Source of the DNA: Nemertoderma westbladi
Lineage: Eukaryota > Animalia > Xenacoelomorpha
Reading direction: 5' to 3'
DNA: 49,190 bases
NCBI GenBank assembly: GCA_032718475.1
Contig: JAUCBJ010001146.1
Span: forward strand, 1-49,190
The position numbers were made by a program, and so were the translations under genes. Position 1 is the stretch's first letter; each line of letters starts with the position of its first letter. Below, in pieces: positions 2,226-35,385 of the stretch. Under the pieces are notes generated by a model. That model searched no databases, was not told where the DNA came from, and saw nothing but the letters and a program-made list of their open reading frames with translations.

Positions 2226-2232
2226 GGCCTCA

Positions 2233-3913: not shown

Positions 3914-6277
3914 TGTTCGCGCTTTTAAGACCTTTAACAGTTTAACCTGCCAAATTTGGATGTCTTTTAGATTATAAATCGACTTTAGCCTATGACAAGT
4001 ATTTGATACAAATAAACACTACATTAGCCGAAGCCAGCCTAGTGCGCGACCATTCACCCGCTGGATATACCCGGGAGACTGGATTCGGAAGCTTAATCTT
4101 ATTGCTGTGTAAACCTACTGTATTATTCGACTGATCGTAATATATAATCTCTGACAAATTGTAAAAGCTTTTGCGTAATTAGCCGGTTATTTTCCCCGTA
4201 AAGTACTCTGTGGTTGGTTTACCAGGCATAAAAAGGCCGTGTCCTTGCTGTACTGGTGTTTTAGAGGACATAAAAGCCATTTCTTCTGTATTTGTACTTT
4301 AGAGGACATAATCCGCAATTTCGTGACGCAATAAGCTAGATTCTCTTGAAAACAGTGTCGCTACCATGACGACGGCTAACAGCTGATATTGCCACGTCGA
4401 CATTTCTTTGTTTCTTTGTTCTCTCGTTGTTCGGTCGACCAATCAGAGCGTTTTTTGTCTCTGTGTTGGAGGTGGATACAGAAACTCAGGAATTCAGTGT
4501 TATGTTTTTGCCCAGAGCCTAAGAACACCGGCTTTTGGCACCTCCGTGTTTCAGTCTTTAGTCTTACATTAGTAGGCTTAATTATAGAACGTATATCTGT
4601 TATCAATGCAATTCATATCTCAACTAACTAAACATATCATACATATCTTACTTAACATTACTGCTTTTGCTGTCGGTTATTCATTATATTCGTTGATGAA
4701 ATATTATATCGGAATACTGATCAATAGTCAGACACCCAACCTTCTTGATATACTAAAGGTTGGAGAGACCGGTTACAGATAAACGATTGCGACCTATGTT
4801 AAGTGGTTTGAAGTGAATCTAATGCTATTTCATAGGCCCGACATAAATTGTATGTTGCTCTCTTTATACGTGACTAAATTTAGTGAAGGTCGGCAGATTA
4901 GTGTGCAGTATTGTGCAGCATTGTGTATGATTGTAACTGATAACAAAGCATCTCCTAAAGAATGCGCCATATACGTGAATCTATAGCCTTTTCGTTGTGT
5001 CTAGTTTAAGTCATAACTCTGTTTACATATTTAGAGCGCCACGTCCTAAAGGAACTGTTAATATTTCCCGAAAGTGAATAATATTTGTCAGAGATTATAT
5101 ATTACGATCAGTCGAATAATACAGTAGGCTTGCACCATCAATCATTAAGCTTCCGAATTCAGTCTCCCGGGTATATCCAGCGGGTGAATGATTGCGCATA
5201 GACTGGCTTCGGCTAATGTAGTGTATCAAATACTCGTCATAGGCTAAAGACTATATATCATCTAAAAGACATGCTAATTTGGCAGGTTAAACTGTCAAAG
5301 GTCTTAAAAGCGCAAATACAAATATTATTCACTTTCGGGAAATATTAACAGTTCCTTTAGGACGTGGCGCTCTATCTATATAAACAGAGCTATGACTTAA
5401 ACTAGACACAACGGTATGGCTATAGATTCACGTATATGGCACATTCTTTAGGAGATGCTTTGTTATCAGTCTCAATCATACACACTACTGCACAATACTG
5501 CACACCGATCTGCCGACCTTCATTAATTTTAGTCACATATAAAGAGAACAACGATGGATACATGTAGTGCCTATGAAATAGCATTAGATTAACTTCAAAA
5601 CCACTTTAATGTAAGTCGCAATCGTTATATGTAACCGGTCTCTCTTACCTTCAGTATATCAAAAGATTGAGGGTTTCGTAATTATTTATCGTTATTCCAA
5701 ATATAATAATATTCCATCAACTGATATAATGAATAACCGACAGTAAATAGCAGTACAATGTTACGGTATGAATGTTTATGTGAGTTTGATTGGTTTGGAA
5801 AGTAAGTAAGATGGTATGTACTGATAACAGATATACGTTCTATAATTAAGCCTACTAATGTTGGGCTAAAGCCTGAAAACACAGAGATTCCAAAGCCGGT
5901 CTTCTGGCTGTGGAAAAAGGTAAACATAAACCGTAATGCATTGTGCGATTTCTCGGAGGTTTCTGTACAAAAAGCCAGAGAATCGCTCTGATTGGTTGAG
6001 TGATTGCACAGAGTGGGCCTGAACAAAGAAACTTCCACGAGTACACCAAATCAGCTGATAGATGTCGTATTCTGAACTACACTGTGTAGAGAGTATTATG
6101 GCGTATTGCGACATAGGATTGCTAGTTGTGTCCGCCAAAGTACACATACAGAAAAATAGCTTTTTATGTCCACTAAAATACCGGTACAGTAAGGAAACGA
6201 CTTTTATGTCCTTCAAAACATCTAAAGAGTACTTCGCGGGGAAAAAATGACTAGCTAATCCCGTAAAAGCCTTTACA
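3914..6277 (-). repeat. 3' LTR of the outer BEL/Pao element, split by a nested solo LTR
   Basis: 3914-4159 plus 5324-6277 reconstitute a near-identical copy of 34192-35385. Confidence 0.9.
4160..5318 (+). mobile_element. Solo LTR of a diverged sister family, inserted in opposite orientation inside the outer 3' LTR
   Basis: Reverse-complement homolog of the outer LTR along its whole length (tgtaaaagctttt ... aaaagcgcaaata). 5-bp TSD CAAAT (4155-4159 / 5319-5323). Absent from the 34192-35385 copy. Confidence 0.85.
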
Positions 6278-6285
6278 CCGCTCCC
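6278..6285 (-). promoter_or_regulatory. Polypurine tract of the outer element
   Basis: Minus strand GGGAGCGG immediately precedes the TGTAAAGG start of the 3' LTR. Confidence 0.65.
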
Positions 6286-6355
6286 AGAAAATGGTATTTA
6301 ATTCTATAAAATATAAAAAATCACAGTTTCTAAAATCTAAGAATACTCTAAACAG

Positions 6356-7119
6356 TTAGTCTTTCTTGCGAGGACGGCGTTTATGCAGTTTTTTAAGGCT
6401 AGCAAGAGTCCTTTTCTCTTTGGGGCGAGCCACTTTACTAGGAGGGCTATAACTCCTGGGTGAAGGGTGCAATACAATTGCATCAGAGGGTTTAGGATTA
6501 CGATCGGTGTATCCGCCGGTCGAGGTACCTGGTTGATCGATACCAACTTCAGTGGAGCGAGGTCTAATGGCCTTTAGGGTGCGTCTTAGGACAGCAGCCC
6601 CTACGGGTCCTTGACGGGTCGTCTGGACAATATCGGTAGGTGGACCGTGAGTGGTGAGAAACTTCCTCGGTTTAATGGTTCTTTCCAGCTCGCGTTCTCG
6701 GGCTCGATATTCGTAGGGCCGTCGAGATACTTCCTGTAACTCAGGGTGCGAGTTGATAAATAAATCGCCATACTCAGGGTCTTGACGGATGAAATTGATC
6801 AAATGGTATGAAGTAATATCGTTAGGATTGACGTTTCTGAGATATTTTCGAACAAATTTGGTGGAAATACTCTCACAAACACGCTTCATTAGTTCGTAAC
6901 TCGGTGTGCGTGTTTTTTGTTCAACAGACGCGAATAGATAAGGATGGAACGCGTAAACTCCCTCGTAAGAGCGTCCAGGGTAATAGCGATGGCGGGACTC
7001 ACAGTGTTAATCCGCGTTCGCTTCCCAAGACCGGATGTAGCGCAGGGTAATCATCTCATCTACGCTTTCTAAATCGCGATTAAAGGGGCAATTATAACTG
7101 GCATGTCCTTTCAATTGAC
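6356..7119 (-). pseudogene. 3' part of the outer element's accessory gene (end of third CCHC knuckle + basic tail), cut off by the inner element
   Basis: Reading across the TTGAC TSD joins ...QCHHCQ (21260) to LKGHASYNC...RYIRSWEANAD, matching the inner element's CSKCNFRGHYGRQC...FRIFEEWAD. An in-frame TAA and a frameshift follow, leading to ORF 6889-6356. Confidence 0.75.
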
Positions 7120-7655
7120 TGTGACGGGATCCAGGAAGGATCCCGATTTATCCGGTTGTTTAATTCACTCGTCCCCGCCGTGCGTGTGAAAGGTGAAGGA
7201 GTTCGTGTCGTTCGTCGTATATAATGTAATCGGGTATATGGATATAAGATATATAAATGGTGTTGTCGTATACGGAAGGCGGGATACGGTAATTAAAGTC
7301 CCGGTCCTTCCCTAGCTAAACTAACTAACCTAACTAGCACCAATATAGTACTGAGATAACTGAACTGATATGATTACAGGTTACTGGTTATATTGCACGG
7401 TGGCCTTATTGCTACTCAATCGATGCCTTTCCCCCCTCTGATTGGTTGATACCCTTGTTGGCGCCTTTGGAGTGATCCCCTTCACTCCACCTGTTCTCTC
7501 TGGGTTAGGGGTTTGGCCCCTGACCCTCATTGTGTGGTTCACCTTCCCATTTTGTTGGGGTGACACGAGTTGGTTATTACCCCAATCTCGTGGCCCCCAA
7601 TATTGCTTATCGGCTTAACTTTTATGGGATGTTAGCGGGATTGAATAAGCTAACA
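7120..7655 (-). repeat. 3' LTR of the inner element
   Basis: Direct repeat of 20724-21259. Confidence 0.96.
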
Positions 7656-7664
7656 CTCCCCCCC
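7656..7664 (-). promoter_or_regulatory. Polypurine tract of the inner element
   Basis: Minus strand GGGGGGGAG abuts the TGTTAGC start of the LTR. Confidence 0.9.
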
Positions 7665-8610: not shown

Positions 8611-10227
8611 TCATTGCTCGCGGCACGTGCAATCCCTAAACTCCCCTCGATTCTGTGGCGTCCACCTGTCCAAATATCTTTGTGTATTCATCACTCCGGC
8701 ATACGATACCGCCGTTGCTACCTCTTGATAGGTAAACGGTAGCCTCCGCTTTATGATTTCCATGTGGGCCTCCTGATTGATAAGGAAGAAACCCCACTTG
8801 AACTCCTGGGCCTTCATGCGTTGCCGGGTCATCGCCCCGACGTCGGCCCATTCTTCGAAGATCCTGAACTTCTCTTCGTCGTCCATCCAATCGCACTGGC
8901 GTCCGTAATGTCCCCGAAAGTTACACTTCGAACATCGGTTGTGCAACCGTGGACACGCCCCCATCCTGTGGCTCGACTCTCGGCAGTAGAGACAAAAGGT
9001 TCCCTTTTGGAACCGGTACAAGCAGCTCCTTTCCTGGTGGGTCTGTCTCCCACAGCAGTCGCAACCGAGTACCAAAGTCTCCCGCCCCACGTCGTCTTTC
9101 GTCCCAAGCGATCTCCGCGGTCTGTGGAGCCGCTGATAGGCGAACTTCTGGACGTTAGCGTCCCTGTTTACGTCGATCTCCTTGCCCCTCCCGGGCATCG
9201 TCTCTCCGAATACTACCCGTGGTGCCGTCCCCGGTTGCTCACCCAACCTGATAGTGCTCCCCGCGAAATCCATCGCCGGCTCCTCGTGCACCCAGGTCCG
9301 CTTGCCGGGTTTATCCCAGAAGGCTCTCGCCCCACTGGCCGTCACCACCCTCCCGCCAACCCAGTCCGTGTCCGAGTGGCCTATCCTCTCGATGGGCGGC
9401 ATCTCCCCGAACTCGTCGTCGTCCTCGTCCTCCTCTCGCAGTGGTTCCAACCCCGGTATCCTGGTGGACCCACTATGTCCCTTCCCGCCTTGGCTCTCGC
9501 CCGTAGCTCTCCATCCTTCTAGCTCCCTTAACTTCCTTGGCGGTTGGTCGCCTTCGGCGCCCCCTGGTATGGGCATTGTTTGCAACCCCGACGTCGACTG
9601 TTTCGGCGATCCCACCGTCCATCCTAGTTCTCGCCCTAGAGATTCCCCCGAACTCCCTGACGAAGTCCAATGAAGTTCGTCCAAGGCCGCTTGTTCCTCG
9701 AAGCCGTAACTCTGTGTCCTGGCCTCCTCTTCCCTCTCCTCTGCTTCTATCCTCTCCCGTCTAGCGACTTCTTCCAGTCGCTTTGTTTCTCGTCTATCCG
9801 TCTCTAACTGCTCCCATCTCTGATACGGCGTATCTATCTCCCCGTCTACCAGATGTCGGCTGTTGTAGTACACCGACTCGCCCTTCAGCCCCGGGTGGTC
9901 TACCAGACCTTCGAAAGCCGTCTTAAAGGCTTTCTGTAGTTTAGGGGTGATCCCGATAATAGGAATGCCGCTGGTTCCCTCTCGATAACCACGGTCATGA
10001 ATAAGTTGAGCAAACTTATCATCATCCAGTCCTCCTGAAGGATATATCGCTTCTGATATACCTCTATGGCTCCTCTTCGGAACTGATACACCTCTTGTTT
10101 TCCCGGTCTCGCTCCCCACTTTAGCGAGTTCGCTAGTTCTGCTCCGTATTCTTCCCTGAACTTCCCCCAGTCCATCGGTTTGTGGCACACGAGCCCCAAT
10201 AGTTGGCCCATCGCCACCGCCCCGCAT
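8611..10227 (-). CDS. Accessory protein C-terminal part: acidic/low-complexity linker + three CCHC zinc knuckles (probably frameshifted from the exonuclease ORF near 9940-9960; may continue in ORF 8632-8375)
   Basis: CDCCGRQTHQERSC, CLYCRESSHRMGAC, CSKCNFRGHYGRQC. Confidence 0.75.
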   Translation of the reverse strand: MRGGGDGPTIGARVPQTDGLGEVQGRIRSRTSELAKVGSETGKTRGVSVPKRSHRGISEAIYPSGGLDDDKFAQLIHDRGYREGTSGIPIIGITPKLQKAFKTAFEGLVDHPGLKGESVYYNSRHLVDGEIDTPYQRWEQLETDRRETKRLEEVARRERIEAEEREEEARTQSYGFEEQAALDELHWTSSGSSGESLGRELGWTVGSPKQSTSGLQTMPIPGGAEGDQPPRKLRELEGWRATGESQGGKGHSGSTRIPGLEPLREEDEDDDEFGEMPPIERIGHSDTDWVGGRVVTASGARAFWDKPGKRTWVHEEPAMDFAGSTIRLGEQPGTAPRVVFGETMPGRGKEIDVNRDANVQKFAYQRLHRPRRSLGTKDDVGRETLVLGCDCCGRQTHQERSCLYRFQKGTFCLYCRESSHRMGACPRLHNRCSKCNFRGHYGRQCDWMDDEEKFRIFEEWADVGAMTRQRMKAQEFKWGFFLINQEAHMEIIKRRLPFTYQEVATAVSYAGVMNTQRYLDRWTPQNRGEFRDCTCREQ

Positions 10228-10919
10228 TGGCCTGTGTTTTCGACTACCTCCAACCCATCCGGTGCCGTCATAGCCATAAAGACCTTCTGCATATTCAGGA
10301 GGTTGGTGGCGTCCGGACCGATGATTCTCTCCGCATCCTCGCGAATCGCCGATCCTACCTTCGTCGTCGACTTCTCTCTTACCAAGACTTGTACCGCTTT
10401 CAGCACTCGGTTTAATTTCGGCCCGTCCTTCTTCCCATACGTCCCTAGATCGAATAAGAAGATGTCCCCATTTGGCGCGGCCAAATGTAGGAGTATGGTC
10501 CTGGCCGACCCCGCCGATCCTTGTCTCGAACCCGCCTCGTCTTCCACGGTTCCCTCGTCATCTAGGATCATATATCCTCCCCTGTTGACGGACTCTATGA
10601 ATTTCTTCCAGTCCTTCCTCGGTGATTCCCTCGGGTACTTCGGAATCCCGAACTTCGCCTCGTCCCCTTTCACTACGTAGTGGAAGTGTTGGAAGATCGC
10701 ATTGTCCAGCGACGGCGTCCCGTAGGTCCCGACCAGTCGCTGTTCGTGCATCTCCCGGAAGTGATCCTGCAGCGCTCGTGCCACATGACCCCTTTCCAAC
10801 CTCTCGTAGTATCCTCTGGTCTTCTCTTCCGGATGTCTCTCGGTGAAATCCACCAGTATCTCCTTTCCTCCTGACTCCGCTTTTCTCTTTCTGATCAACT
10901 TGCTCGCCATCCCGAACAC
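9900..10919 (-). CDS. Accessory DEDD-family (RNase D/WRN/EXD-like) 3'-5' exonuclease domain
   Basis: ExoI YMILDDEG, ILLHLA..IFLFDL, ExoII KVGSAIREDAERI, ExoIII-like QKRYILQED. Homologous to the outer element's 22802-21950 region. Confidence 0.72.
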   Translation of the reverse strand: MFGMASKLIRKRKAESGGKEILVDFTERHPEEKTRGYYERLERGHVARALQDHFREMHEQRLVGTYGTPSLDNAIFQHFHYVVKGDEAKFGIPKYPRESPRKDWKKFIESVNRGGYMILDDEGTVEDEAGSRQGSAGSARTILLHLAAPNGDIFLFDLGTYGKKDGPKLNRVLKAVQVLVREKSTTKVGSAIREDAERIIGPDATNLLNMQKVFMAMTAPDGLEVVENTGQCGAVAMGQLLGLVCHKPMDWGKFREEYGAELANSLKWGARPGKQEVYQFRRGAIEVYQKRYILQEDWMMISLLNLFMTVVIEREPAAFLLSGSPLNYRKPLRRLSKVW

Positions 10920-11399
10920 TCACTCGCTCACCTGTAAGGTGGTGCCTTACCAAGGCGCAATACAGATGAGTGATGTACCTAAGATGTTCTGTACGGTCCG
11001 ATAATGGCCTATTTCTTACTTAACTGCGCCCTTTTAGTCTGAATTCTTGCTATTTAATTCCCTAGCTAATAAATGAGCCTAATTTACAGTTTCTGTCCGT
11101 TACTTTAATTATGTTCTAGAATAACTTCCCTAGTGTTGCCATAATTTGTAACTTTCAGCCCTATTCTATTTTATTTTTATCTATCTATTTTTGATTTTAC
11201 TGTCCTACTACCTATTATTCCCTATGGATAATTCTATTCTCTAATCCACATTCTGGCCTACTCTGTGGGCCTATGCAGTACAGCAATATGCGTCATGTGG
11301 CCACACGATTTACCCAGCTGTACTCATATGCCCCCCTCTCACTACCAACCGCTAACTGATATCTATATCCCATATACCCTTCTACCTCTTACTCTCTTT

Positions 11400-11990
11400 C
11401 TAACTAACGGTACTACGTACCCTCTAACTCTAACTCTTTTCTAACTAGCGGTACTACATACCCTCTAACTCTAACTCTAACTCTTTTCTAACTAGCGGTA
11501 CTACGTACCCTCTAACTCTAACTCTTCTCTACATAGCGGTACTACGTACCCTCTAACTCTCTAACTGACTAGCGGTACTACGTACCTCCTAACTAACTCT
11601 AGGTACTACGTACCTTCTAACTCTCTACCTAACGGTACAACGTACCCTCTAACTCTTCTCTAACGGTACTACGTACCCTCTAACTAACTAACTAATGGTA
11701 CTACGTACCTCCTAACTCTCTACCTAACGGTACTACGTACCCTCTAACTCTTCTCTAACGGTACTACGTACCCTCTAACTAACTAACTAATGGTACTATG
11801 TACCTCCTAACTCTCTACCTAACGGTACTACGTACCCTCTAACTCTTCTCTAACGGTACTATGTACCCTCTAACTAACTAACTAATGGTACTACGTACCT
11901 CCTAACTCTCTACCTAACGGTACTACGTACCTTCTAACTAACTAACTAACTCTAGGTACTACGTACTACTTCTAACTCTTTTAACTTCTG
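11400..11990. repeat. Array of ~17 GGTAC-TAC-GTACC mini-hairpin units with CT-rich spacers, between pol and the accessory gene
   Basis: Motif at ~11409, 11449, 11497, 11538, 11574, 11602, 11634 ... 11955. A 95-bp three-unit higher-order repeat occupies the distal part. Confidence 0.9.
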
Positions 11991-12120: not shown

Positions 12121-13842
12121 CTAAGGTGCCCCTTCTAGGAGACAGCATTTCCCTACAGCTCTCCTGTAGGTCTTTCTGTCCTTCGCACCTATCTTACCAC
12201 CTATCCGCACTTCTACCGATCGGACTCTTCCGTCCTCGTCGGAGTAAGTGCCTACGACTCTTGCCAACCGCCATTGGTTGTTGATGATAGTATCATCCGT
12301 AACGATTACGAGATCTCCCTCTTTCAACTCCCTATTCGGCTTCCTCCATTTGCTTCTTTTATGGAACGTGGGCAGATATTCTTCGACCCACCTCCTCCAA
12401 TACTCGGCACTTATTGCTTTAGCAACTTTCCAACTCTGGCGGGAGTGTATGTCGTCTGGATCTACACCCCGCATATCGATGGTTGCTGGCCTTTCCATTA
12501 GAAAATGGCTAGGGGTCAGCACGTCTAGTGATTCAGGGTCATCATTCTCCGGATATAGCGGTCTACTATTAATGATGCCCTCACACTTTGCAAGCACTGT
12601 CCTCAAGATGTCCTCCGTGACCATGTGGGTGTTCATTAACTTCGTCATTAGACGCTTCAAACTGCCCACCAGTCTCTCGACGCATCCTAGTGTATGTGGT
12701 GCATACGGCGTCCTTCTCTCCCACTTTACTTGTCGTCGTCTCATGGCCGCCCTGACTTCCTCCCCTTCCAAGATGTCCAAGGCCTCTGCCATCTCATTCT
12801 CTGCGCCCACAAAGTTGGTGCCGTTGTCGCTGTATATCACTGCGATCGTCCCAACTTTGCGGTCTCTAAACCTTTCTAAGGCATTAATGAATGCTGATGC
12901 GGTTGCATCTTGGGCGAGTTCTATCCCTACCGCCCGCGTGTTGTTACATACGAAGATGATACCGTAGCGTTTCTCCGTGTGCCGCATCACCTTGATTTTT
13001 ATCGGCCCGAACATGTCCACACCGCAATGCGTAAATGGCGGGTCGTGCTGTCTTACTCTACTTGCTGGTAGTGGCGCCATCTCTTGTATGGCTCGCTCCT
13101 TCTTCGCTCGTCAGCAGGTCTGGCACTGCCCCACTACCGCTTTTACCTTCTTCCTCAGTTGTTTGACCCAGTAGGTCCTCCTTATCTCCGCGAGAGTTCG
13201 GTTGGTGCCCCCATGCAATATCGACTTGTGGGAGTCCCAGATAATCTGGTGAACTATTGGCGATCCTATTGGAATGATGATGGGTTTCAGTGGTACGATT
13301 ATGCTGTTGTTGTATCCCACCCTAGAATTCATTACTAGAATCCCGTCGTCATTAAGTTGTGGCGACAGCGTAATCAGCTCGCTGTCTTGTCGGAGGTGCT
13401 GTTGGTTACCGACGCATTCCACCTCGTCACCATAGTTCTTCCGTTGTTCATAGCGGATGACTGCCTTGGCCGCTCCTTCCAGATCTATATATGTCTTGAT
13501 CTTTTTGGTTTTGCCGACTCCCGCGAGGAAATTCCCGAAGGCTCTCCAGTACGCCACTAGTTTCTTGGTCTTATACCAACTAGAACTGTAGCTGAGGAGT
13601 TTATCTGTCGGGTTATCGCATTGTTCTTGCTTTGGTTGCACGTCCCTAATCTCCCTCACCATCTGGGAGTATATCTCTTCTCCCTCTGAATCTCCTTCAT
13701 CTCCCTCTGACACCACTTCCGAGCCCGGGTCCACCTTTCTCATCGGCGGCCAGGCCTCCTTATCGCTCAGAAATTGTGGCCCATGTTGCCACAATACTTC
13801 CTTTTTCAAGAAAGTGTGGCATGCCACGCCCCTCGATAACAA
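12121..13842 (-). pseudogene. Pol: RH-IN linker, HHCC zinc finger and DDE integrase (one in-frame TGA at 13111-13113)
   Basis: SH..LHGG...CQTC, then HCGVDMFGP, IYSDNGTNFVGA, GCVERLV, INSRPL, LTPSHFL, WRRWVEEYL, DGRVRSVEVR. ORFs 13842-13111 and 13080-12121 are in the same frame. Confidence 0.93.
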
Positions 13843-17320: not shown

Positions 17321-17432
17321 TGGGGGTAGCGGCCCCCTCCATATTTCTGTGTCACACTACCTATTTTCATCTAAGGGTCTCGTTGTTCTTGCTCCTATCG
17401 GGGTATATTGTTGATATTGTGATGGGGGAATG

Positions 17433-20683: not shown

Positions 20684-20693
20684 TTACTGAGTC

Positions 20694-20723
20694 TAGCTAG
20701 GGCGGCAGCTCGGATTTAATTAC
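20694..20723 (-). promoter_or_regulatory. Non-tRNA primer-binding position of the inner element, complementary to its own LTR
   Basis: Minus strand GTAATTAAA directly follows the 5' LTR, with no TGG. It is complementary to LTR 20901-20893. A second block CCCTAGCTA (20702-20694) is complementary to LTR 20922-20914. Confidence 0.7.
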
Positions 20724-24200: not shown

Positions 24201-24605
24201 CATCATAGTGAAATAGAGTTGTTTGAGTTCTATCATAGGATCATGATGTATACCTTGAGGATATCGAGTTTCTAAATTTTGTTGACTGGCAACATTGAGA
24301 TATGTTTCTCTTAGAAACTCCAGATATTTGTTGAAGTCGCTGCGTTTATCCGGCTCTTCAACATCTTCTCTTTCGAGTCGGTTTCTAATAGAATTCTTGT
24401 GTTCTATTCTCGGTTTATCGTTACAACTCCGCTGGGTATGATATTTGAATAAAACCATTTCCCTTTCTGTATTGATATCGTCCGTATCGTGTAGGTCGAT
24501 AGGATGACCAGTAGCTAAGAAGTCCATATACGTACCATTACGATGCATATAGCGAGCGGTGAACTTTCTATAATCCAATTCACGCGTAAGTTGCTCCGGG
24601 GACAT
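21260..24605 (-). pseudogene. Outer element accessory gene: unknown N-terminal domains + DEDD 3'-5' exonuclease + CCHC knuckles (degraded, continues at 7119)
   Basis: Consecutive minus ORFs 24605-23616, 23582-22839, 22802-22338, 22495-22157 (+TGA) and 22039-21254. Motifs VVTYDNEG, LEMLFNERILKIGSAVYGD, FVDTQLI, AIYTIFEN, CRLCASRDH, CAYCRLNNSHIFAVC, CHHC. Confidence 0.75.
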
Positions 24606-25550
24606 TAACGACCATCATCCTCCGTAGTAGTTGGACTGGCGTCGCCGCGTATCAAGCTATCGACAAACGCTTGTAAAGGTAGAGTATATCGCTCCCTGAT
24701 ACCAAGGTCATCTTCTATCAACTCAGTCATATCTGCTATATGAGTCTATCAATATTATAATGAGTTTATATTTTAGGCTAGCGGGCGTTGCTGCCTACCC
24801 CTCTTTTGCCCCCGGACAGTGTAAGATCATCAGCGCCGATGTACCGTCGTCGCTGTGTTTTCGCCAACGATGTAGCTACACAACGACAACGATAACCGGC
24901 ACAAGTCACTCCACTGTCCGTCCCAAAGGCTTAGATGTACTTCAGGTTCTTACTGGAGAGTTAGGGCTACTTTCACAATTGCGACTCGCTACTGTAAACA
25001 CACTTTAGCAGTAACATTCACCTATAAACGCACAAATTCAACACAACTGTGACAAACTGTACACATTAGGGCCATTTGTCCGTTAGTCAAGTGCCTTCCA
25101 GAATGTCACTTTATTATTATGTATCCTTGGATACTAACAGTGTGCTATTTATTCCCTATGCTATTCAATGGGGCAAGCTTTCTATTGTTCTTTTAACTCG
25201 CTTATAATTCTAGCGTGGTTGTTGCTATGGTGACATTATGGAAAGCTAGCAGTATAATTAGGGTAATTCTCATGCATACAGATCTGGGATGCTATTTAAT
25301 AGTAATTCTTTAATTGTCAATATCCCTCTTTATATATGATTTTATAAATTTTATCGTCTATTGACTATATATATTGGAGATTCTCGCACACTAATACTTA
25401 ATAGAGTGAATCTCCACTCCCATGATCTATTAATTAAAGGAATTTTGGGAATGTTATAAATTGTATAAAAATGACAATTTATTGAATTCATTAAAAATAT
25501 GAATTTAAATTTATTCACGTAAATTTTATTATTTAATGTTAAATAGACAC

Positions 25551-26164: not shown

Positions 26165-26196
<32 letters not shown>

Positions 26197-27036
26197 GTCG
26201 TCGTCGTTACGATTTTGACATGCTAATAACTTTGTCGGATTTAAAGCTGCCAAGTTGAAAATTTGTAGGTATCAATATGAGCAAAAGTTGAGATTTTTGA
26301 GAGACTTTCAGACACCATCAGTGCAATGGTCTCCCGCTAGAGGGCCACATGTCTAAACATTAAATGCCCTCCCATTTCTTTGCTTTTAATCCGTTTAAGC
26401 TGAAACTTGGCAGATATGTATTAGACCATTAGCTGTGACTTTCAAAGGAGGCGAATCCATCTGCAGTTCTCCAGTCTGCCGCTAGAGGGCCAAAGGTCTG
26501 AAAGTGAAATCGTTGTCGTCGTTACGATTTTGACATGCTAATAACTTTGTCGGATTTAAAGCTGCCAAGTTGAAAATTTGTAGGTATCAATATGAGCTAA
26601 AGTTGAGACGTTTGAGAGACTTTCAGACACCATCAGAGCAATAGTCTCCTGCTAGAGGGCCACATGTCTAAACGTTAAATGTCCTCCCATTTCTTTGCTT
26701 TTAATCCATTTATGCTGAAATTTGGCAGATATGTACTAGACCATTAGCTGTGACTTTGAAAGAAGGAATTGAATTGAATTGAATTGAAGGCTAATCCGTG
26801 TGCAGTTCTTCAGTCTGCCGCTAGAGGGCGAAATGTTTGAAAGTGAAATCTTTCTCCCATCTCGTTATTTATGATCCGTTCAAGCTGAAACGTAGCAGAT
26901 ATGTAGTAGAAGTCGGCCTGAGTCTTTGGTGGGCAGTAAACGGTCTGGAGTCCTCCAGTCTGCCGCTAGAGGGCGAAATGTATAACTAAGTATAATTAAG
27001 TCACGTGCTGCGCGAAGGCCCCACTTCGTGTACTTT
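26062..27036 (+). mobile_element. Non-autonomous Helentron/HINE-like (or related) DNA element with (GTC)n microsatellite and ~150-bp core repeats
   Basis: Subterminal inverted motifs gtggggc/cacgaagt versus gccccac/acttcgtg, (GTC)n at ~26144-26207, and repeated cores with tgaaacttggcagatatg and ccgctagagggc. Boundaries approximate. Confidence 0.55.
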
Positions 27037-27336
27037 AATAAGTACGGAGATTTCATCTTACTGTAGTCACGTATTTATAATATGATACGGACAGTAAGGA
27101 AAGAGAAAAAGAATTATTTCTTGCCGTCACACTAAATATATAATATAAGTAATTATGTAAGTATTAAACACTAATACACATTGCACTAATCTACTAAATA
27201 ATCGCTAAAATAACCTTCTACTAAATAAAATTAAAGAAAACGATTATAATAAAATTACATAATAATACGTACATAAATATAAAATAATAAAAAACAAATA
27301 TAAAATAATATAGTCACACACCCACTCCGTATGTTG

Positions 27337-30300
27337 TTACGTTATGGAGTCCCTAGATATTTGTCGGATTAGGGAGGTGGTCGTAGGAAGAGTATCTTGC
27401 CTTCCATAGTTTCCGGACAGTTTTCGGTCTCTTTCCAGTAAACATAAACGACCAGCTGGGCGATTGAGTTGTTGTGTTACTTTCTCCGCTCCCTTGGCCT
27501 GTCTAATCTCCACCGTGGTAAGATGAGGAGGCCATTCATCTTCTTCTTTACTTAGGAAGTCGGGTCCACCTAGCCAACCTGGAGTATCTATCAGTTCTTG
27601 AGGAGTTGCTCCTCTGGAAGCGATGTCGGCTGGATTAATCGTCCCAAGGCAATGTCTCCATTGATCTACATTGGAGTTAATATCGTCATTATCTGAGGAG
27701 TATGGTATTCCCTCAGTTGGATCGTCCACCTCACTGCTCTCCACTTCCCATTTACTTACGTGGTAGACCCATTCTTTGGGCAACCTTTCCATGAGTGTTC
27801 TACGGGACGGACCAGTAAGGTACCAACCTACTCTAGTTCTTCCCGCATAAGTTTGTAGTGGTTGCGTTTGAGCAGGCCGTTTCTCCAATGTCTCAAGTGC
27901 CTCATGCGCATTTTGGCCGATGAGTATTTGCACTCCAGGGTAGTCGGTGTCGAATCTAGGTATTTCAAGCTGCTGGGTGAAATCGTCCTCATCCCAGTTA
28001 TAAGGTTCCACTTGGCTGGTAGCGAAGTTCTTTATCGCCACCATCTTTACTGACCTTATACTATGTTCTCCTAGTTCATCCTGGGGAGTGGACAACGCGC
28101 CTACATAATAATTAGCTATTACAGTAGATTCCCAAACCTGCATAATTCCTGACATGTTTAGCTTAGTTCGGAACTTGGGTTGTCCAGCAAAGATGTCTTC
28201 GGCTAGTACTTTGTCGATGAATGTTCCTGTGCTACCGGAGTCAAGGAGGGCGTTCACTATATAACTCCTTTTAGGTCCGTGGACCCTTAACTGTACTACA
28301 GGAAATTCTCGGATTCCTACATTGGAAGTTGGCACTTTCCAAGATGGTTGTCGATCGGAAGTAGTTAAGGTGAGGTCACTGTCGGTGTCTTTTTCATACG
28401 TAAGTGCTCGATACACTGCGGTATTTATCATGTAACAGGATTCGTCTTGGTCGGAGAATTCGTCCGTATAGAATCCTTCCATCTCAGAACTTTGGTCAGT
28501 GTCGTTCACATCACTGAATTGGACATGCAGTTCGGACTCACTTACCTGACTCGGGCTGTTTCGTTCGAATTCAGTGTGCAACAAGATATGATGTTTCGCA
28601 CCGCACTTTGCACACCTTGTGTCAGAGTAACAGGTTTGCCGCTGGTGTCCTTGTCTGAGGCAATTATAACACAACCGCTTATCCCACATGACTTCCCGTC
28701 TATCCGTTAATGATTTCTTTAGGAATTCATCACACATATTCAAACGGTAGGTCCCGTCACATAGCACACATTTCGGTTTGATGTTACTTACCTTTTTTTG
28801 AATAACATTGTGCACACTCGTTCTTTCCTCGGGCTTTCTTACATGAATTCTCCTAGGAGACGTAGGAGGAGTTTTTCTTACCGGTTCTCTCCCGTCATTG
28901 GTTCGAGACATGAATTTACTTACCTGTTCTTTAGGCATTTTATTGACATAATAAGATCTTTCAGTGTCTTTCCCGCTGTCCTCTCCTTGAGAAGTCTGGC
29001 TTTCGCCATCGTCGGTATAACACACTGGTGTTACTTTTCTCCTAGAAACGGGTTTCTCACTTACCTTGTTTTCCGGTGTCTTCTCTCTGGACTGCTTTAG
29101 GAGTTGTAATTTCACTTCTCCATCCAAGAATGACATGAGATCAGCCATAGTAGGGTCTCGTCGTTGTTGCTCCATCATATATAACACTTTCTTATCCCAG
29201 CGTGTACCTACTCCACCCTTCGGTAAAGTAGAAGCCATGGCTCCAATAACCATGGAACTCTGATATTCATGAGACTTGCCTAACCAATCTAATTGTCTAC
29301 AGATATCTTGAATCTCATCGGAAAACTCTATTATCCCGCTGCTAATGAACTTTCGGGGCGCTACTAGTTTTGCATACAAATATTTAGCTATGTTATTCCT
29401 ATTACCATACCTGATGTTTAGGGTATCCCAAACTTGTCTTAATCCGTCTGGATGTCCAATAAACTTTAACGCCATTAACTTGGGAGATCCTTCCAAGCAC
29501 TCGATGAGGAATCTCAGTTTCTCTCCGTTAGATAACACAGAGTTCTGTATGTTATCTTTATAATATTCATTGAAAGGTAACCATTTCATCTCATCTCCAT
29601 TGAACTTGACTATCTCTCCCACCTTTACCGCTTGACGGGCTTCGGTTCTAGCCATTTGACGAGTAAAACTTTCTTGAGCCATCATGTTATTTAATATCGA
29701 GTTATCGGTATATAAATTTCTCGGATTTTGATCAGGTCTATAGGGAATATCATTGTCAACAGGTTTATAATTACCCTTAATAGGGTTCACTATAGGAGTT
29801 TCTACTTCGCTAGCAGTATAGATGCGTGTAGGCTCCACACCTTGCGCATGAGATACTTCAGACCTAACAGGTTGACACATTGTTACCGGGGGTGGTGGTA
29901 TACCCTTTTGTGTATTTACTAATTTATCGCGTTCTAACGCGATACTTTGCTGCACTTCTTGCAACTCTAACCTACTTTCCCTTACTGTGCCCTTGAACTG
30001 CTTAACAGTCTCCTGCATCTGCCCGAGCAGGAGATCCATCCCCCGCTGTCTCTCATCCACCCAATCAACCGCCGAAGCAGGATTCGCCAACGTTGTAGTG
30101 GGTGGACGAGGGATAACGGGCGACAAATCATTAATATTTCGCTCGGTTCTGTGGGGCACAGGCAGCCTAGTGCTATGAAGAGGGAATTTAGAGATAGGTT
30201 CTGGGAGCACAGGTGTCTCTATCACCGAAGGGGTGATTTCAAGAACAGGCCTAATTATTTCAGGCTCATCTACTATAGTAGGGAGTCTTTCTATTTTAAT

Positions 30301-30756
30301 TATTTGGTCTGTGGGTTCTGTACTACCTAAGCCTGTGTTAGTTAGTTGCCTTCTAATAGTTGGGGGCAAATCAGGCAATTTCTGACGGTGGGACATTCTT
30401 CTACGGCTGCTTAGACGAGATCTATTTCCTCCACCCTCAGGATCGGTGGTATCGCCTTCATCAGATGATGTAAATCCCTGCCGTTTGGGAGTAGATCGTC
30501 TCATCATCTGCATTTGACTAGCTGTTAACTGTTTATTGAAGTTGTCTTGCCTCTCTTGAAGATTTTCCAACTCTAGTTGGGTTGTCTCTTCAGATGCCCT
30601 CCGTTCTGCTTCTGCCACTGCCTCCGCCGCCTTACTTTCCGCTTCGGCCGCTGCTTCTGCCGCCTTTCTTTCCGCTTCGGCCGCTGCTTCTGCCGCCTTT
30701 CTTTCCGCTTCGGCCGCTGCTTCTGCCGCCTTTCTTTCCGCTTCTGCCTTTGCCAT
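27337..30756 (-). CDS. Outer element Gag (DUF1759-like, triple Cys/His box) + protease fused in frame to remnants of RNase H end and integrase end
   Basis: KFNGDEMKWLPF..EKLRFL..LEG, CVLCDG..C / CYNCLRQGHQRQTC / CAKCGAKHHILLH, ALLDSGSTGTFI, then QWRHCLGTINPADIASRG..WLGGPDFL..EWP and TVEIR...RPAGRLCLLE. RT and IN core are absent. Confidence 0.9.
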   Translation of the reverse strand: MAKAEAERKAAEAAAEAERKAAEAAAEAERKAAEAAAEAESKAAEAVAEAERRASEETTQLELENLQERQDNFNKQLTASQMQMMRRSTPKRQGFTSSDEGDTTDPEGGGNRSRLSSRRRMSHRQKLPDLPPTIRRQLTNTGLGSTEPTDQIIKIERLPTIVDEPEIIRPVLEITPSVIETPVLPEPISKFPLHSTRLPVPHRTERNINDLSPVIPRPPTTTLANPASAVDWVDERQRGMDLLLGQMQETVKQFKGTVRESRLELQEVQQSIALERDKLVNTQKGIPPPPVTMCQPVRSEVSHAQGVEPTRIYTASEVETPIVNPIKGNYKPVDNDIPYRPDQNPRNLYTDNSILNNMMAQESFTRQMARTEARQAVKVGEIVKFNGDEMKWLPFNEYYKDNIQNSVLSNGEKLRFLIECLEGSPKLMALKFIGHPDGLRQVWDTLNIRYGNRNNIAKYLYAKLVAPRKFISSGIIEFSDEIQDICRQLDWLGKSHEYQSSMVIGAMASTLPKGGVGTRWDKKVLYMMEQQRRDPTMADLMSFLDGEVKLQLLKQSREKTPENKVSEKPVSRRKVTPVCYTDDGESQTSQGEDSGKDTERSYYVNKMPKEQVSKFMSRTNDGREPVRKTPPTSPRRIHVRKPEERTSVHNVIQKKVSNIKPKCVLCDGTYRLNMCDEFLKKSLTDRREVMWDKRLCYNCLRQGHQRQTCYSDTRCAKCGAKHHILLHTEFERNSPSQVSESELHVQFSDVNDTDQSSEMEGFYTDEFSDQDESCYMINTAVYRALTYEKDTDSDLTLTTSDRQPSWKVPTSNVGIREFPVVQLRVHGPKRSYIVNALLDSGSTGTFIDKVLAEDIFAGQPKFRTKLNMSGIMQVWESTVIANYYVGALSTPQDELGEHSIRSVKMVAIKNFATSQVEPYNWDEDDFTQQLEIPRFDTDYPGVQILIGQNAHEALETLEKRPAQTQPLQTYAGRTRVGWYLTGPSRRTLMERLPKEWVYHVSKWEVESSEVDDPTEGIPYSSDNDDINSNVDQWRHCLGTINPADIASRGATPQELIDTPGWLGGPDFLSKEEDEWPPHLTTVEIRQAKGAEKVTQQLNRPAGRLCLLERDRKLSGNYGRQDTLPTTTSLIRQISRDSIT

Positions 30757-31955
30757 GCTGCTGTTACTGCTGCTGTCTTTCTGTCTTCTATTCGTTTTTT
30801 CTTTACTTGTTCCTCTTGAACCTTAGTGAGGCGGATGCTTTCATCGAATCTACCTTGGTTCGCAGCTAACATATCTACATCGATTGCGTCCAACACAAGT
30901 TTGGCTCCTTCACTATTAGGGCTAAGTCCATCCAGCCGTCTCCTCAACTCTTCGTCCCCTACAAATCGTTGATAGTCTGACAGATAGATGTCAATAGCAT
31001 CCCTCTTATGCGGTTTCTCTGCTGTCGCTTCGCTTTCCACTTGGGAAAAGGTAGCGTCTGTTAATTCTCCATGGGTTGAGCGCTCATCCAACTGAGATTT
31101 CCACGGGGTAGTTCTTTGAACTTGGAGGCTCACCCGCTGAAACCAAGTCTTTACAGGAACTTGCAACGATGTGTCTTGTCTTCTTTTTGAAGCTTCCTCA
31201 AAGGCAGATAAGATTAGTCTGATTCTTAGAATTATTTCCCTAACTTGATAAAGCAGCTTTCCCTGCTCTTGAGGTCCTTGTGGTTGTCGAAACAATTGTT
31301 CCTCTAATCGCTCCATAGAGCTGAAGAATCCCTGCACGTATCCGGCTGCTGACCTCTTCCATACACCTGGATCACAGGTTTCTTTTGTCACTCCCATCCT
31401 GTGAATGTCTTCCCAGGCAGCTTCTGATAAGTCAAACGGGAGTCCAGGTCCGGGGAAGTTCCATTGCGACTTGACAATAGACTCCAGTTCTTCCCTTGTG
31501 TATCCCGCATAACTATCCTTAGTCGATCGCTTACTTCTCGCCCAATCAATCTGGTGCTCCTCCACCGCAATCAATACCCTAGTGAGTACGGCTGCAGGAA
31601 GGATGAGAAGGGGGTCCGAATAAACCATATCCGCCATCTTCGCTCCGCGTTCGGGTGTCAGCTCTACAGTATCCGAACTACTGGAGCTATCGGGCCGCGG
31701 AGAACTAGGCTCTTGGCTAGGATGTTGCTGCTGCTCAACAGCCGCTTCTTGATCCCGCTTGACTTGGGCCCGAGTGCCGATGATAGACCGATGGTGTTGG
31801 ATTAGCTTAGGGTCTGATATTACTACTGGAGGGATGACCTTCCTTACAGTAGGAGGTGAGTTGAACTTGGGTCTTACACGTTCCACACTCCTGTCTGGGT
31901 CACAGATGGTTGTATCTAGGAGACTGTCGGACAGGTTCTGCTTTGTGTCAGACAT
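30573..31955 (-). CDS. Outer element Gag N-terminal part (frameshifted into the next ORF at ~30755)
   Basis: ATG at 31955. One extra base at GCA GCA TGG CA would give ...AAMAKAEAERK. 33-bp AEAERKAAEAA repeats follow. Confidence 0.7.
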   Translation of the reverse strand: MSDTKQNLSDSLLDTTICDPDRSVERVRPKFNSPPTVRKVIPPVVISDPKLIQHHRSIIGTRAQVKRDQEAAVEQQQHPSQEPSSPRPDSSSSSDTVELTPERGAKMADMVYSDPLLILPAAVLTRVLIAVEEHQIDWARSKRSTKDSYAGYTREELESIVKSQWNFPGPGLPFDLSEAAWEDIHRMGVTKETCDPGVWKRSAAGYVQGFFSSMERLEEQLFRQPQGPQEQGKLLYQVREIILRIRLILSAFEEASKRRQDTSLQVPVKTWFQRVSLQVQRTTPWKSQLDERSTHGELTDATFSQVESEATAEKPHKRDAIDIYLSDYQRFVGDEELRRRLDGLSPNSEGAKLVLDAIDVDMLAANQGRFDESIRLTKVQEEQVKKKRIEDRKTAAVTAAWQRQKRKERRQKQRPKRKERRQKQRPKRKERRQKQRPKRKVRRRRQWQKQNGGHLKRQPN

Positions 31956-32084
31956 GTTTGTTTATACGGTTGAATGCCTACTGCTATATTACAGTTAAAG
32001 CAAGTCTAGTAATTCAGTATCACTGTTAGCCTAGTAATTAATTACCGATACTGCTACTCAATGTAGCGTGATATATATACAATA

Positions 32085-32340
32085 TATTAGAATACCGGTA
32101 TACTTATAATATATAGGTATTATTACAGACTAGATTTGTCACAGAATACCGGTATGTAATTCCAGCATAAATATATATAAATATATAATAGGCCTATCTT
32201 GAATACCGGTATACAGCTTACACTTATGGTATATATAAGTATAATTATGGACTAGAATTAAATACAGAATACCGGTATAATTTCAGACTAAATTTATAGA
32301 AATAAATATAATAAGCCTATTGTAAATACCGGTATGTCAA
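32085..32340. repeat. Degenerate tandem repeat in the outer leader with recurrent ATACCGGTAT palindrome
   Basis: ataccggtat at ~32092, 32146, 32203, 32269, 32326. Confidence 0.7.
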
Positions 32341-33267
32341 TTATTTTAAATAATTGAATTTCTGAATTTTTAGGGGTTACTTGGTTACTTTACTTACTTT
32401 ATTACCGTTATTTGAGCAGTAGTCCAACTGATATTGAGACCTAATTGTTGTATCGCAGGCCTACTATTTATAAATCGTTTGAGTTGATTTATAATATCTA
32501 TATACCCGTTTAATGGGTTTTGTCAATATTTGAAATAAATGTTATTATTTCTGGGGGAAGTCACTACACAGATGCTGTGCGCTCTCAGTGAAGTGCTACT
32601 TGTTGGACACTAAAACAAATAATTCTAATTTACCTAGGTTACTTAATACTACAAATTACGTACAATTCGGTGTGAGATTACAATCTCTAAATAAACACAA
32701 AAATTACAAGTGCGAATTTTTAGGGTAATTTTAAAAGAAGTCTACAAACCAGCCTAACAAAGGGTTAGAATATCTGGTTATTACAACGGACAGGGTACTA
32801 CGGTATTTGGAAAATAATAAGCAGTAGTAAATATATTGCGCAGTCCAGATAGGAAAAATACCACCGTCTGACGACCTGTAGCCGTATCGCTATAGGTACT
32901 ACGTTATGTTTCGCGGAGTGTTCCTACCTAGAAGTTAATTACCGCGGTCTACCAGAACCAACGTGCCTATTAACCACTTTACAACACAAATATACTACCT
33001 ACACACTAATCACCTTCGGAAAGCACTGTACACTAAACCCTAGATTAGGTACAAGTACTTGTACAACAATAATCAGTAGTTAAATATACTTGAACAGCTA
33101 AAAGAACCACGGCATCTGCTGGAGTGACCGGGGCACAAAAGTAGTAAGTAAGTAAAAGTAGTACCGGGGTTAATTTAACTATAACGGTATGTATAACAAG
33201 CACAATTACTGTAGGAATAAACTTGGGGATATGAATGTTGCGAATAATCGCATAAACTCTGAATAAT

Positions 33268-33840
33268 AAATATTGCGCTACGCGTACAGACTACTCAAAC
33301 AAAATGCAGATCAAATACTGACAGACTACTATCAAGCCTAAACAAACTACGGTATATGCAGACTCCGAAATGGTTAGTTAGTATGCGTTCTAACCGAGTA
33401 GTACAAATTATTCTTTCGAGGGGGTTTACCTCACAGCACTGGAAGCCCCTACGTTCCTAACCAGCACTTTATCGGACATACACTCTACACGCACCGCAAT
33501 CTCTTCAGACCTAACAACAGCCAGACAACAATCCAGCCTACAAATTATCTAAATAAGAAATATTACGCTACCCGTACAGACTACACAAACAAAATACAAA
33601 CCAAACGCTGGCAGACTACCATCAAGCCTAAATAAACTACAGTATATGCAGACTCCAAAATGGTTAGTTAGTATGCGTTCTAACCGAGTAGTACGACTTA
33701 TTCTTTCGAGGGGGTTTACCTCACAACACTGGAAGCCCCTACGTTCCTAACTAGTACTTTTTCGGACATACGCTCTACACACACTACAATATCTTCAGAC
33801 TTAACAACAGTCAGACAACAGTCCAGCCTACAAATTATCT
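33268..33840. repeat. ~290-bp tandem duplication in the outer leader
   Basis: aaatatt.cgctac.cgtacagactac ... cagcctacaaattatct occurs twice (33268-33550, 33558-33840). Confidence 0.9.
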
Positions 33841-34059
33841 GTACAATCTGGGCAGGCTTACACGTCTTCTTCTCAATATTAGCCTACAAATAAATAAAAC
33901 TGACAGAAATAAGTAAAATCCCAATAAAAAACCAGGGCGGGCCCTCCCTGATTAATTATCAAGACCTACCAGTATATAATTATCTAAATCTAATAATACT
34001 GCTGTACCTGTACTGTTGTAAGTACCGGTTCCGGTGGTTAGGTAGTTAGGCCTACAGGT

Positions 34060-34175
34060 TACCGGTCGACCGGTACTTCCGACTTGATTGCTTACGCCGC
34101 AATCAAGAAGCAACAACTGTTATTGTTCTTACCAGAACAATATTAAACTGTATTTATTGCTTACACTGCAATAAA
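34060..34175 (-). other. Structured leader: 16-bp palindrome plus three stem-loops directly after the primer-binding position
   Basis: taccggtcgaccggta (34060-34075), cttgattgc/gcaatcaag (34083-34107), tattgttct/agaacaata (34121-34142), tttattgc/gcaataaa (34153-34175). Confidence 0.8.
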
Positions 34176-34179
34176 GAAT

Positions 34180-34191
34180 TATATCTGTTAT
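34180..34191 (-). promoter_or_regulatory. Non-tRNA primer-binding position of the outer element, complementary to its own LTR
   Basis: Minus strand ATAACAGATATA directly follows the 5' LTR, with no TGG. It is the exact 12-nt complement of LTR 34943-34932 (TATATCTGTTAT). Confidence 0.72.
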
Positions 34192-35385
34192 TGTTCGCGC
34201 TTTTAAGACCTTTAGCAGTTTAACCTGCCAAATTTGGATGTCTTTTAGATTATAAATCGACTTTAGCCTATGACAAGTATTTGATACAAATAAACACTAC
34301 ATTAGCCGAAGCCAGCCTAGCCTATTCACCCGCTGGATATACCCGGGAGACTGGATTCGGAAGCTTAATCTTATTGCTGTGTAAACCTACTGTATTATTC
34401 GACTGATCGTAATATATAATCTCTGACAAATATTATTCACTTTCGGGAAATATTAACAGTTCCTTTAGGACATGGCGCTCTATCTATATAAACAGAGCTA
34501 TGACTTAAACTAGACACAACGGTATGGCTATAGATTCACGTATATGGCGCATTGTTTAGGAGATGCTTTGTTATCAGTCTCAATCATACACACTACTGCA
34601 CAATACTGCACACCGATCTGCCGACCTTCATTAATTTTAGTCACATATAAAGAGAACAACGACGGATACATGTAGTGCCTATGAAATAGCATTAGATTCA
34701 CTTCAAAACCACTTTAATGTAAGTCGCAATCGTTATATGTAACCGGTCTCTCTTACCTTCAGTATATCAAAAGATTGAGGGTTTCGTAATTATTTATCGT
34801 TATTCCAAATATAATAATATTCCATCAACTGATATAATGAATAACCGACAGTAAATAGCAGTACAATGTTACGGTATGAATGTTTATGTGAGTTTGATTG
34901 GTTTGGAAAGTAAGTAAGATGGTATGTACTGATAACAGATATACGTTCTATAATTAAGCCTACTAATGTTGGGCTAAAGCCTGAAAACACAGAGATTCCA
35001 AAGCCGGTCTTCTGGCTGTGTAAAAAGGTGAACATAAACCGTAATGCATTGCGCGACTTCTCGGAGGTTTCTGTACAAAAAGCCAGAGAATCGCTTTGAT
35101 TGGTTGAGTGATTGCACAGAGTGGGCCTGAACAAAGAAACTTCCACGAGTACACCAAATCAGCTGATAGATGTCGTAATCTGAACTACACTGTGTAGAGA
35201 GTATTATGGCGTATTGCGACATAGGATTGCTAGTTGTGTCCGCCAAAGTACACATACAGAAAAATAGCTTTTTATGTCCACTAAAATACCGGTACAGTAA
35301 GGAAACGACTTTTATGTCCTTCAAAACATCTAAAGAGTACTTCGCGGGGAAAAAATGACTAGCTAATCCCGCAAAAGCCTTTACA
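34192..35385 (-). repeat. 5' LTR of the outer element (1194 bp)
   Basis: Uninterrupted copy of the split LTR at 3914-6277. Imperfect terminal inverted repeat tgt-N4-gctttt. Followed by GTAGT. Confidence 0.9.

Follow-up and report, generated by a model that had tools for sequence, protein, structure and literature searches.

Two nested BEL/Pao elements

We analysed a 49,190-nt stretch of Nemertoderma westbladi DNA (assembly GCA_032718475.1, contig JAUCBJ010001146.1, positions 1 to 49,190 of the forward strand; hereafter the window) that carries two nested retrotransposons that have long terminal repeats (LTRs) and are of BEL/Pao type. In both elements the primer-binding site (PBS) behind the 5' LTR is complementary to a segment of the element's own LTR, and tRNA-independent self-priming is, judging from the sequence, well supported in both. 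Each also holds an extra gene between pol and the 3' LTR, the cargo, with a predicted exonuclease and zinc knuckles.

Self-comparison together with inspection of the ends resolved the nest into three pieces, namely an outer element, an inner element and an inverted solo LTR of a sister family. The outer element occupies exactly 35385-3914 on the minus strand, with TG..CA ends and the 5-bp target duplication ACTAC; the inner element occupies 21259-7120 on the same strand, with TG..CA ends and the target duplication GTCAA. Both thus show the TG..CA LTRs and short target duplication of BEL/Pao elements, and both have a purine tract. The inner LTRs (536 bp) differ from each other at 7 positions and the outer LTRs (1194 bp) by 15 substitutions. 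The inner insertion splits one knuckle of the outer cargo gene, and its empty site, 7111 joined to 21260, was present in contigs of two DNA runs. The features are as follows (positions, strand, description).

34192-35385, minus: outer 5' LTR, 1194 bp, TG..CA, from self-comparison
34932-34943, minus: outer predicted self-primer, 12 nt
34180-34191, minus: outer PBS, flush with the LTR end, no TGG
27337-31961, minus: outer gag-protease, split over two frames and continuing into a short tail of RNase H; reverse transcriptase (RT), most of RNase H and integrase missing
21260-24614, minus: outer cargo, 5' part, with an N-terminal region without family match, predicted exonuclease and knuckles
22607, 22306 and 21976, minus: outer cargo motifs ExoI DxE, ExoII and ExoIII-like YxxxE
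23618, 22841 and 22159, minus: stops in the 5' part of the outer cargo, with a frame change near 22400
6356-7119, minus: outer cargo, 3' part, continuing the split knuckle; stop at 7009
5319-6277, minus: outer 3' LTR, first part
3914-4159, minus: outer 3' LTR, last part
4160-5318, plus: inverted solo LTR of the sister family, 5-bp target duplication, 12-nt primer segment unchanged
20724-21259, minus: inner 5' LTR, 536 bp
20914-20926, minus: inner distal helix, LTR arm, 13 nt
20893-20901, minus: inner predicted self-primer 3' end, 9 nt
20774-20892, minus: predicted stem starting directly behind the primer (20892-20882 with 20783-20774)
20690-20723, minus: inner PBS (20723-20715) and distal-helix arm (20702-20690)
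12121-20683, minus: inner gag-pol with capsid DUF1759, protease, RT, Pao RNase H Peptidase_A17, integrase and DUF5641, in seven open pieces
9900-10910, minus: inner cargo, open predicted DEDDy exonuclease frame; splice-acceptor-like site just upstream
10565, 10343 and 10046, minus: inner cargo motifs ExoI DxE, ExoII and ExoIII-like YxxxE
8611-9930, minus: inner cargo, 3' part in another frame, with an acidic linker and three CCHC-type knuckles
7120-7655, minus: inner 3' LTR, with a purine tract ahead of it; its primer copy ends at 7289 and its ATTAAA lies at 7164-7159

The inner Pol is of the BEL/Pao type, with DUF1759, Peptidase_A17 (E 1e-38), Integrase_H2C2 and DUF5641 and the order protease, RT, RNase H, integrase. 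All of its 55 matches carried PF05380, the named relatives including Clytia, Littorina, a barnacle and insects, and no chromodomain was found by Pfam in the Pol of the window, which is of the BEL/Pao and not of the Ty3/gypsy chromovirus type. The outer element has a 2.2-kb leader followed by gag-protease and a short RNase H tail, its recognizable domains being limited to DUF1759, protease and that tail; its RT and integrase are gone, and it therefore depends on a helper. The two Gag proteins share 19% identity over 357 columns, so the elements represent two distinct families, as the initial annotation of this stretch had proposed. The inner family is very abundant in the DNA runs of organism A.

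Flush self-pairing in place of a tRNA site

TGG is absent from the first 200 nt behind the inner 5' LTR and appears only at +58 behind the outer one. No TGG thus stands near either LTR end, and the 18-nt tRNA-Arg or tRNA-Gly site in the BEL/Pao profile of ICTV, the international committee on virus taxonomy, was not found; a search of the window for tRNAs or Rfam families returned none. The loss of the tRNA site that had been claimed for both elements was thus borne out.

An LTR segment pairing flush with the LTR edge had likewise been claimed, and it was recovered in both elements. In the outer element it measures 12 nt (34943-34932), equalled in 2 of 5000 dinucleotide shuffles (6 of 5000 with offsets of 0-3) and at 0 of 12,839 internal positions. 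The inner complement measures 9 nt (20901-20893), with 32 of 5000 shuffles (94 of 5000 with offsets) and 20 of 12,972 internal positions doing as well. For the inner element the earlier description was right about these 9 nt and had overlooked a second helix of 13 bp (20926-20914 with 20702-20690; 0 of 200 shuffles) lying upstream of the primer. Together they form a bipartite duplex of ~40 nt and -37 kcal/mol, equalled by 1 of 300 shuffled sites, the distal part alone by 1 of 1000. The outer primer lies within a 40-nt block (34969-34930) that is identical in the sister solo LTR, and this is the longest identical block between the two apart from an 86-nt patch at the solo-LTR insertion site. 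A primer assembled across a splice junction was looked for in both window LTRs and not found.

The solo LTR sits inverted within the outer 3' LTR and is otherwise 75% alike to the outer LTR. The identical 86-nt patch (34471-34386) spans its insertion site, with gene conversion between the inverted copies as a possible cause. A perfect 8-bp hairpin (20748-20728, 7144-7124) lies close ahead of the primer site, near where the inner LTR ends.

Transcript ends and predicted folding

In the inner LTR, promoter-type motifs (CCAAT at 21049, AATATA at 20998, TCAGT within 20972-20958) place the predicted start 65-80 nt upstream of the primer, and the outer LTR has an initiator-like TCAGT directly behind its primer; conventional promoter and initiator motif shapes were applied here. 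An ATTAAA is present at 7164-7159 and 20768-20763. The start site, and with it the placement of the primer segment in R, are predictions.

Each of the two elements has a predicted stem that begins with the base immediately behind the primer (2 of 60 shuffles in either case). In the predicted fold of the 5' leader it brings primer and site together, and the primer helix, when forced there, costs 2.9 kcal/mol and stacks on the stem beginning at the next base. In the inner 3' copy the predicted stem reaches from 7288 to 7170 (pair probabilities 0.64-0.79), between the poly(A) end and the primer end, although, taken whole, the stem region is folded no more stably than shuffled sequence (z 0.46). 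A single-strand exonuclease that enters at the poly(A) end would presumably halt ~120 nt before reaching 7289, so that trimming back to the primer end is likely blocked.

Variation among inner copies

Other copies of the inner element were compared in contigs from four DNA runs, representing at most three samples, unphased and with 40 of 53 rows listed. Among these rows substitutions fell on 3 of 44 helix positions and on 33 of 220 positions outside. All three helix differences yield G.U pairs and so keep the pairing (20897 in 71-100% of depth, 20717 in 6-21%, 20919 in under 1% to 27%), which is no more than suggestive, as half of transitions would be expected to do so. No compensating change at 20719 occurred among the rows listed, which is unexplained if the site is recopied from the primer in every cycle. 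The stem arms behind the primer carried no substitution in the same rows, and no other part of the LTR is kept as well among copies as the primer region, whose depth is ~45,000 compared with ~1,000 at 20792-20863. The ATTAAA invoked by the initial annotation is present and not conserved, its third letter differing in 67-80% of depth over the other copies.

Self-pairing in related BEL/Pao elements

By Pol alignment we collected 79 BEL/Pao loci from metagenome contigs, 29-34% identical in Pol. Priming was examined in 24 of them, and two (L019, L044) were dropped for unreliable LTR ends, which left 22 scorable loci; the remaining 55 had no bracketed LTR end or lay outside the analysis. Self-pairing over 10-15 nt was found in 18 of the 22, belonging to 15 families. 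Where both LTR ends were available, 9 of 11 loci self-pair: seven hold up under strict settings (10-15 nt; 0 of 600 internal pseudo-sites for every locus), and relaxed settings add L011 (11 nt, relaxed acceptor) and L059 (10 nt, offset 4), these two standing outside the shuffle controls. The other two, L002 and L056, have a site of the TGG type. Where the LTR end was inferred, 9 of 11 loci score 10-15 nt (0-3 of 30-40 shuffles), L037 (3 of 40) and L061 (2 of 40) being weak; L004 was scored in one run and missed in another in which the region had been cut shorter.

Twelve families (L009, L011, L018, L034, L036, L041, L076, L004, L029, L037, L061, L068) pair only over the junction of a 72-210-nt GT..AG intron within the LTR, and three (L059, L062, L079) pair unspliced, as the window elements do. 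The site of L062 starts with GTA and its primer ends with TTAC, as in the inner element. Significant upstream helices were found in L059, L062, L018 and L041 (0, 8, 9 and 3 of 500, respectively), and the related loci L018 and L076 differ by a compensating pair. Counting the two window families and the 15 related ones, the pairing always stops no more than 4 nt from the LTR edge, with different letters. In the intron-bearing relatives the intron persists in both LTRs, which would fit a spliced 5' primer and an unspliced 3' template.

In the Pol tree the self-pairing loci form one clade (Shimodaira-Hasegawa (SH) support 96), and the two TGG loci fall outside it. Searching the 79 loci by tblastn yielded nothing similar to the cargo, and the 27-412 bp between pol and the 3' LTR of the relatives leave no room for it. 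The initial annotation had proposed an exonuclease-assisted priming system shared by the two families, and had set out beforehand that self-complementary relatives mostly lacking the DEDD gene would speak against it; the gene was found in 0 of the 15 self-pairing families, whose Pol is distant (up to 38% identical). Since none of them carries the cargo, self-pairing in BEL/Pao at large needs no encoded exonuclease. Searches for a third cargo-bearing element and for BEL/Pao loci in viral contigs found none. Two of the loci (L071, L072) lie on one 18.5-kb contig as head-to-tail BEL/Pao copies of 6138 bp with single shared LTRs, 100% identical, either a tandem array or a circular form.

The cargo gene

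The cargo occupies 10910-8611 in the inner element, in two frames, and 24614-21260 plus 7119-6356 in the outer one, within spaces of 4.4 kb and ~7 kb between pol and the 3' LTR of the window elements. Both versions contain an ExoI DxE, an ExoII block, a YxxxE block and three CCHC-type knuckles, in identical order. Homology between them, as initially annotated, was upheld (ExoI region, 1 of 1000 shuffles; knuckles, E 2e-4); the assignment as an exonuclease is a prediction, and the outer copy is broken.

In the ESM Atlas the inner domain scored 0.95, with 25 of 30 matches bearing PF01612, a family present on 34% of the members of the best named cluster. A home-made PF01612-type profile (41 bacterial RNase D, PolA and stand-alone exonuclease domains) matched the outer ExoII block at E 1.3e-5 (0 of 500 shuffles) and the inner one weakly (3 of 500). 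ExoII is thus aligned by the profile; the acids of ExoI DxE and ExoIII YxxxE were placed by eye after the usual DEDD motif shapes and are unaligned by it. The ExoIII-like YxxxE has E in place of D in both elements. Sequence searches of Pfam, PHROGs and the PDB with the cargo found nothing, and searches for homologs gave 0 of 2610 candidates, 0 of 3690, none at E 0.001 and 0 of 97. No homolog was found in phages, 201 genomes yielded weak, scattered matches in 15 only, and no sequence relative was found among 1.84 billion representatives. Three further attempts were set aside: a profile of 24 stand-alone bacterial exonucleases scored neither cargo clearly (inner 5 of 500, outer 189 of 500), a single-sequence fold reached a pLDDT of 37, at which a fold search is meaningless, and the Atlas gave only cupin-like leads below 0.9 for the outer N-terminal piece.

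Four in-frame stops and one frame change interrupt the outer cargo; one of the stops lies within a donor-like GTAAGT, so splicing could bypass it. Among the best-supported rows, 9 of the 11 differences listed in the inner exonuclease frame are silent. The cargo is likely a real, conserved and very divergent DEDDy-like gene. The long N- and C-terminal regions of the outer cargo (24614-22839 and 7006-6356) have no family match and no inner counterpart, and the N-terminal part contains a Cys/His cluster.

Other repeats in the window

Within the inner element, tandem arrays lie between pol and the cargo (32/41-bp units, 11375-11977) and in gag (39- and 36-bp units, 18478-19070). The outer leader contains 290- and 123-bp duplications (33258-33840, 32109-32335). 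Just outside the outer 5' LTR stands a 430-bp tandem unit (35401-36544), which has a short GCCCTCTAGCGG-type motif in common with duplicated repeat pieces inside the outer element (26195-26981). Beside the elements follow a 22/30-bp palindromic minisatellite (36761-37187) and a 49-bp satellite of ~227 copies with 90% matches (37658-48742). At the other end, 1-3333 holds an RT-bearing element with 472-bp direct repeats (1-472, 2861-3333; 98.5%), presumably Penelope-like, with a C-terminal motif that we take to resemble a GIY-YIG nuclease.

Interpretation

The reading we favour, to which we give about an even chance, is that these BEL/Pao elements prime from their own LTR RNA in a Tf1-like manner and carry a separate accessory exonuclease gene. 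The LTR segment would be part of the transcript's 5' end, ~70-80 nt after the start, and would fold in cis onto the site behind the 5' LTR, possibly helped by Gag knuckles. The element's own RT/RNase H would then cut the primer free and leave a 3'-OH, as in Tf1, and minus-strand DNA would start from the released segment. A cis primer freed by a cut is favoured because the predicted leader stem joins primer and site and because of the relatives' introns and the analogy with Tf1/Tf2. The cargo would probably be made from spliced RNA and act on RNA or DNA 3' ends; a role against host silencing or in clean-up of replication intermediates is a guess.

Several observations weigh against this picture. 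The start site, the poly(A) site and the cut are all predictions, and the predicted primer does not lie at the very 5' end of the transcript. In free folding the 9-bp inner helix has a probability of only 0.01-0.11 and the outer helix of 0-0.41; the solo LTR lacks the stem behind the primer, and nine relatives give a mixed picture for it. The outer distal (upstream) pairing is not significant (670 of 1000), and the three-duplex 'pretzel' of Tf1, formed with LTR sequence downstream of the primer, was not found in the window elements (70-197 of 200 shuffles as good). In the free tree the inner Pol is a long branch outside the relatives' clade of 28 rows (SH 99), so that self-priming may have arisen separately in the window lineage and may work differently there; placement inside the self-pairing clade, a group named after the tree had been seen, was not rejected by the approximately unbiased test (p 0.37). 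The cargo also matters for something, because it was kept in two families 19% alike in Gag and most of its listed inner differences are silent.

In a rival account the exonuclease assists priming in this lineage: the 3' R copy or a short LTR transcript would anneal over 20-40 nt to the primer site, or an imprecise cut would leave a tail, and the exonuclease would trim it back to the duplex. Both window families carry both traits and pair exactly flush, the inner duplex is long enough (~40 nt) for two molecules, the lineage is a lone long branch, and the outer TCAGT directly behind the primer would leave the primer only in the 3' copy; RNase D-type enzymes trim structured RNA 3' ends (PMC5408684). 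Set against this are the lack of the gene in all 15 self-pairing families, the predicted 7288-7170 stem between the poly(A) end and the primer end, and the unconserved ATTAAA. Trimming would moreover remove the R needed for strand transfer on that molecule. The outer cargo is broken in a young copy, although its RT is also missing and help in trans would be needed anyway, and the two window families may not be independent cases. We consider this account unlikely; if true, it would add a third start mode of reverse transcription beside tRNA priming and RNase H self-cleavage. Because distant self-pairing relatives carry no such gene, the exonuclease is probably not the primer maker, and of the earlier proposal tRNA-independent self-priming stands while its coupling to the exonuclease is possible but not supported.

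A primer supplied as a host-made short LTR RNA (through slicing of the piRNA type, through host exonucleases or through early poly(A) addition to solo-LTR transcripts), annealing in trans with an end made by neither RNase H nor the cargo, would suit the abundance of the family in organism A, the exceptional conservation of the primer region and the weak folding in cis in silico. Against it, the intron in both LTRs of the relatives would fit a spliced 5' primer and unspliced 3' template best; we judge this origin rather improbable. Much the same low probability attaches to the pairing being a structural switch for packaging, dimer formation or translation control, with another host RNA such as a tRNA half as the real primer. 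Half-tRNA priming exists in copia groups (PMC6317226), and the inner helix core is only 9 bp; yet the pairing keeps to within 4 nt of the LTR edge in 2 + 15 families with different letters (e.g. L018 and L076), and the two window sites differ, so that two different host RNAs would be needed. Chance, or a functionless template-switch copy, is very improbable: the inner 9-mer is AT-rich and matched by 94 of 5000 shuffles with offsets, but the pairing occurs in two families, is joined by a second helix, varies among copies only by wobbles and recurs in 18 of 22 relatives.

Comparison with known systems

Elements of the Tf1/sushi group lack a tRNA site, and an LTR segment pairs beside the 5' LTR with its 3' end facing U5 (PMC4600332, PMC6317226, PMC5341516); self-priming has been described mechanistically for Tf1/Tf2 (PMC5341516, PMC4600332, bioRxiv 2022.12.06.519325). 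The lack of a tRNA site is common to the window elements and Tf1, Tf2, Tj1 and other Tf1/sushi elements (Ty3/gypsy chromoviruses), as well as the plant elements Tcn1 and TAR/Houba/Osr-1 (predicted self-priming). The defining complementarity between an LTR segment and the site behind the 5' LTR is present in the window, over 12 and 9 (+13) nt. The window elements differ in belonging to another superfamily, BEL/Pao, in a predicted primer ~70-80 nt inside the transcript (the first 11 bases in Tf1), and in an extra helix upstream of the primer instead of the pretzel duplexes; BEL/Pao relatives differ further by building the primer across a splice junction.

According to ICTV, Belpaoviridae have an 18-nt tRNA-Arg or tRNA-Gly site, encode gag, pol and env only and measure 4.2-10 kb, and their replication is described as poorly understood and tRNA-primed (PMC8742986). 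The window elements resemble them in their LTRs, purine tract, gag, protease-RT-RNase H-integrase order and Pfam domains, and depart from them in having no tRNA site, a third gene for a predicted exonuclease with knuckles and an inner element of 14.1 kb. By protein they belong to BEL/Pao, yet they lie outside the priming mode described for it.

The cargo recalls the DEDDy ORF3 of the bdelloid-rotifer elements Juno, Vesta and Terminons, for which a role in 3'-end processing has been proposed (PMC5408684, PMC6431247). Both genes lie between pol and the 3' LTR, are of RNase D type (by prediction in the window) and have an altered acidic motif; the rotifer genes belong to another element group, and in the window the domain is joined with three knuckles, giving a protein of ~800 residues or more. 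The part of the rotifer DEDDy paper available does not mention PBS, tRNA or priming (PMC5408684). The literature searched yielded no account of BEL/Pao elements that self-prime or that carry an exonuclease gene, most subscription journals and supplements lying outside the scope of the search; primer-site tables in BEL/Pao surveys, or Repbase or GyDB entries, may already note such sites.

Taken with the 15 related families, the window suggests that much of BEL/Pao self-primes, in at least two builds, one with a contiguous primer and an upstream helix and one with a primer across an LTR splice junction. This changes primer-site annotation in animal LTR elements and predicts exact RNA ends. A cargo type known from rotifer elements is extended to BEL/Pao, and, since the inner domain is an uninterrupted frame, its activity is open to assay. 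What appears to be new here is that probable Tf1-like self-priming and a predicted exonuclease cargo of rotifer type, kinds known from other groups, both occur in BEL/Pao.

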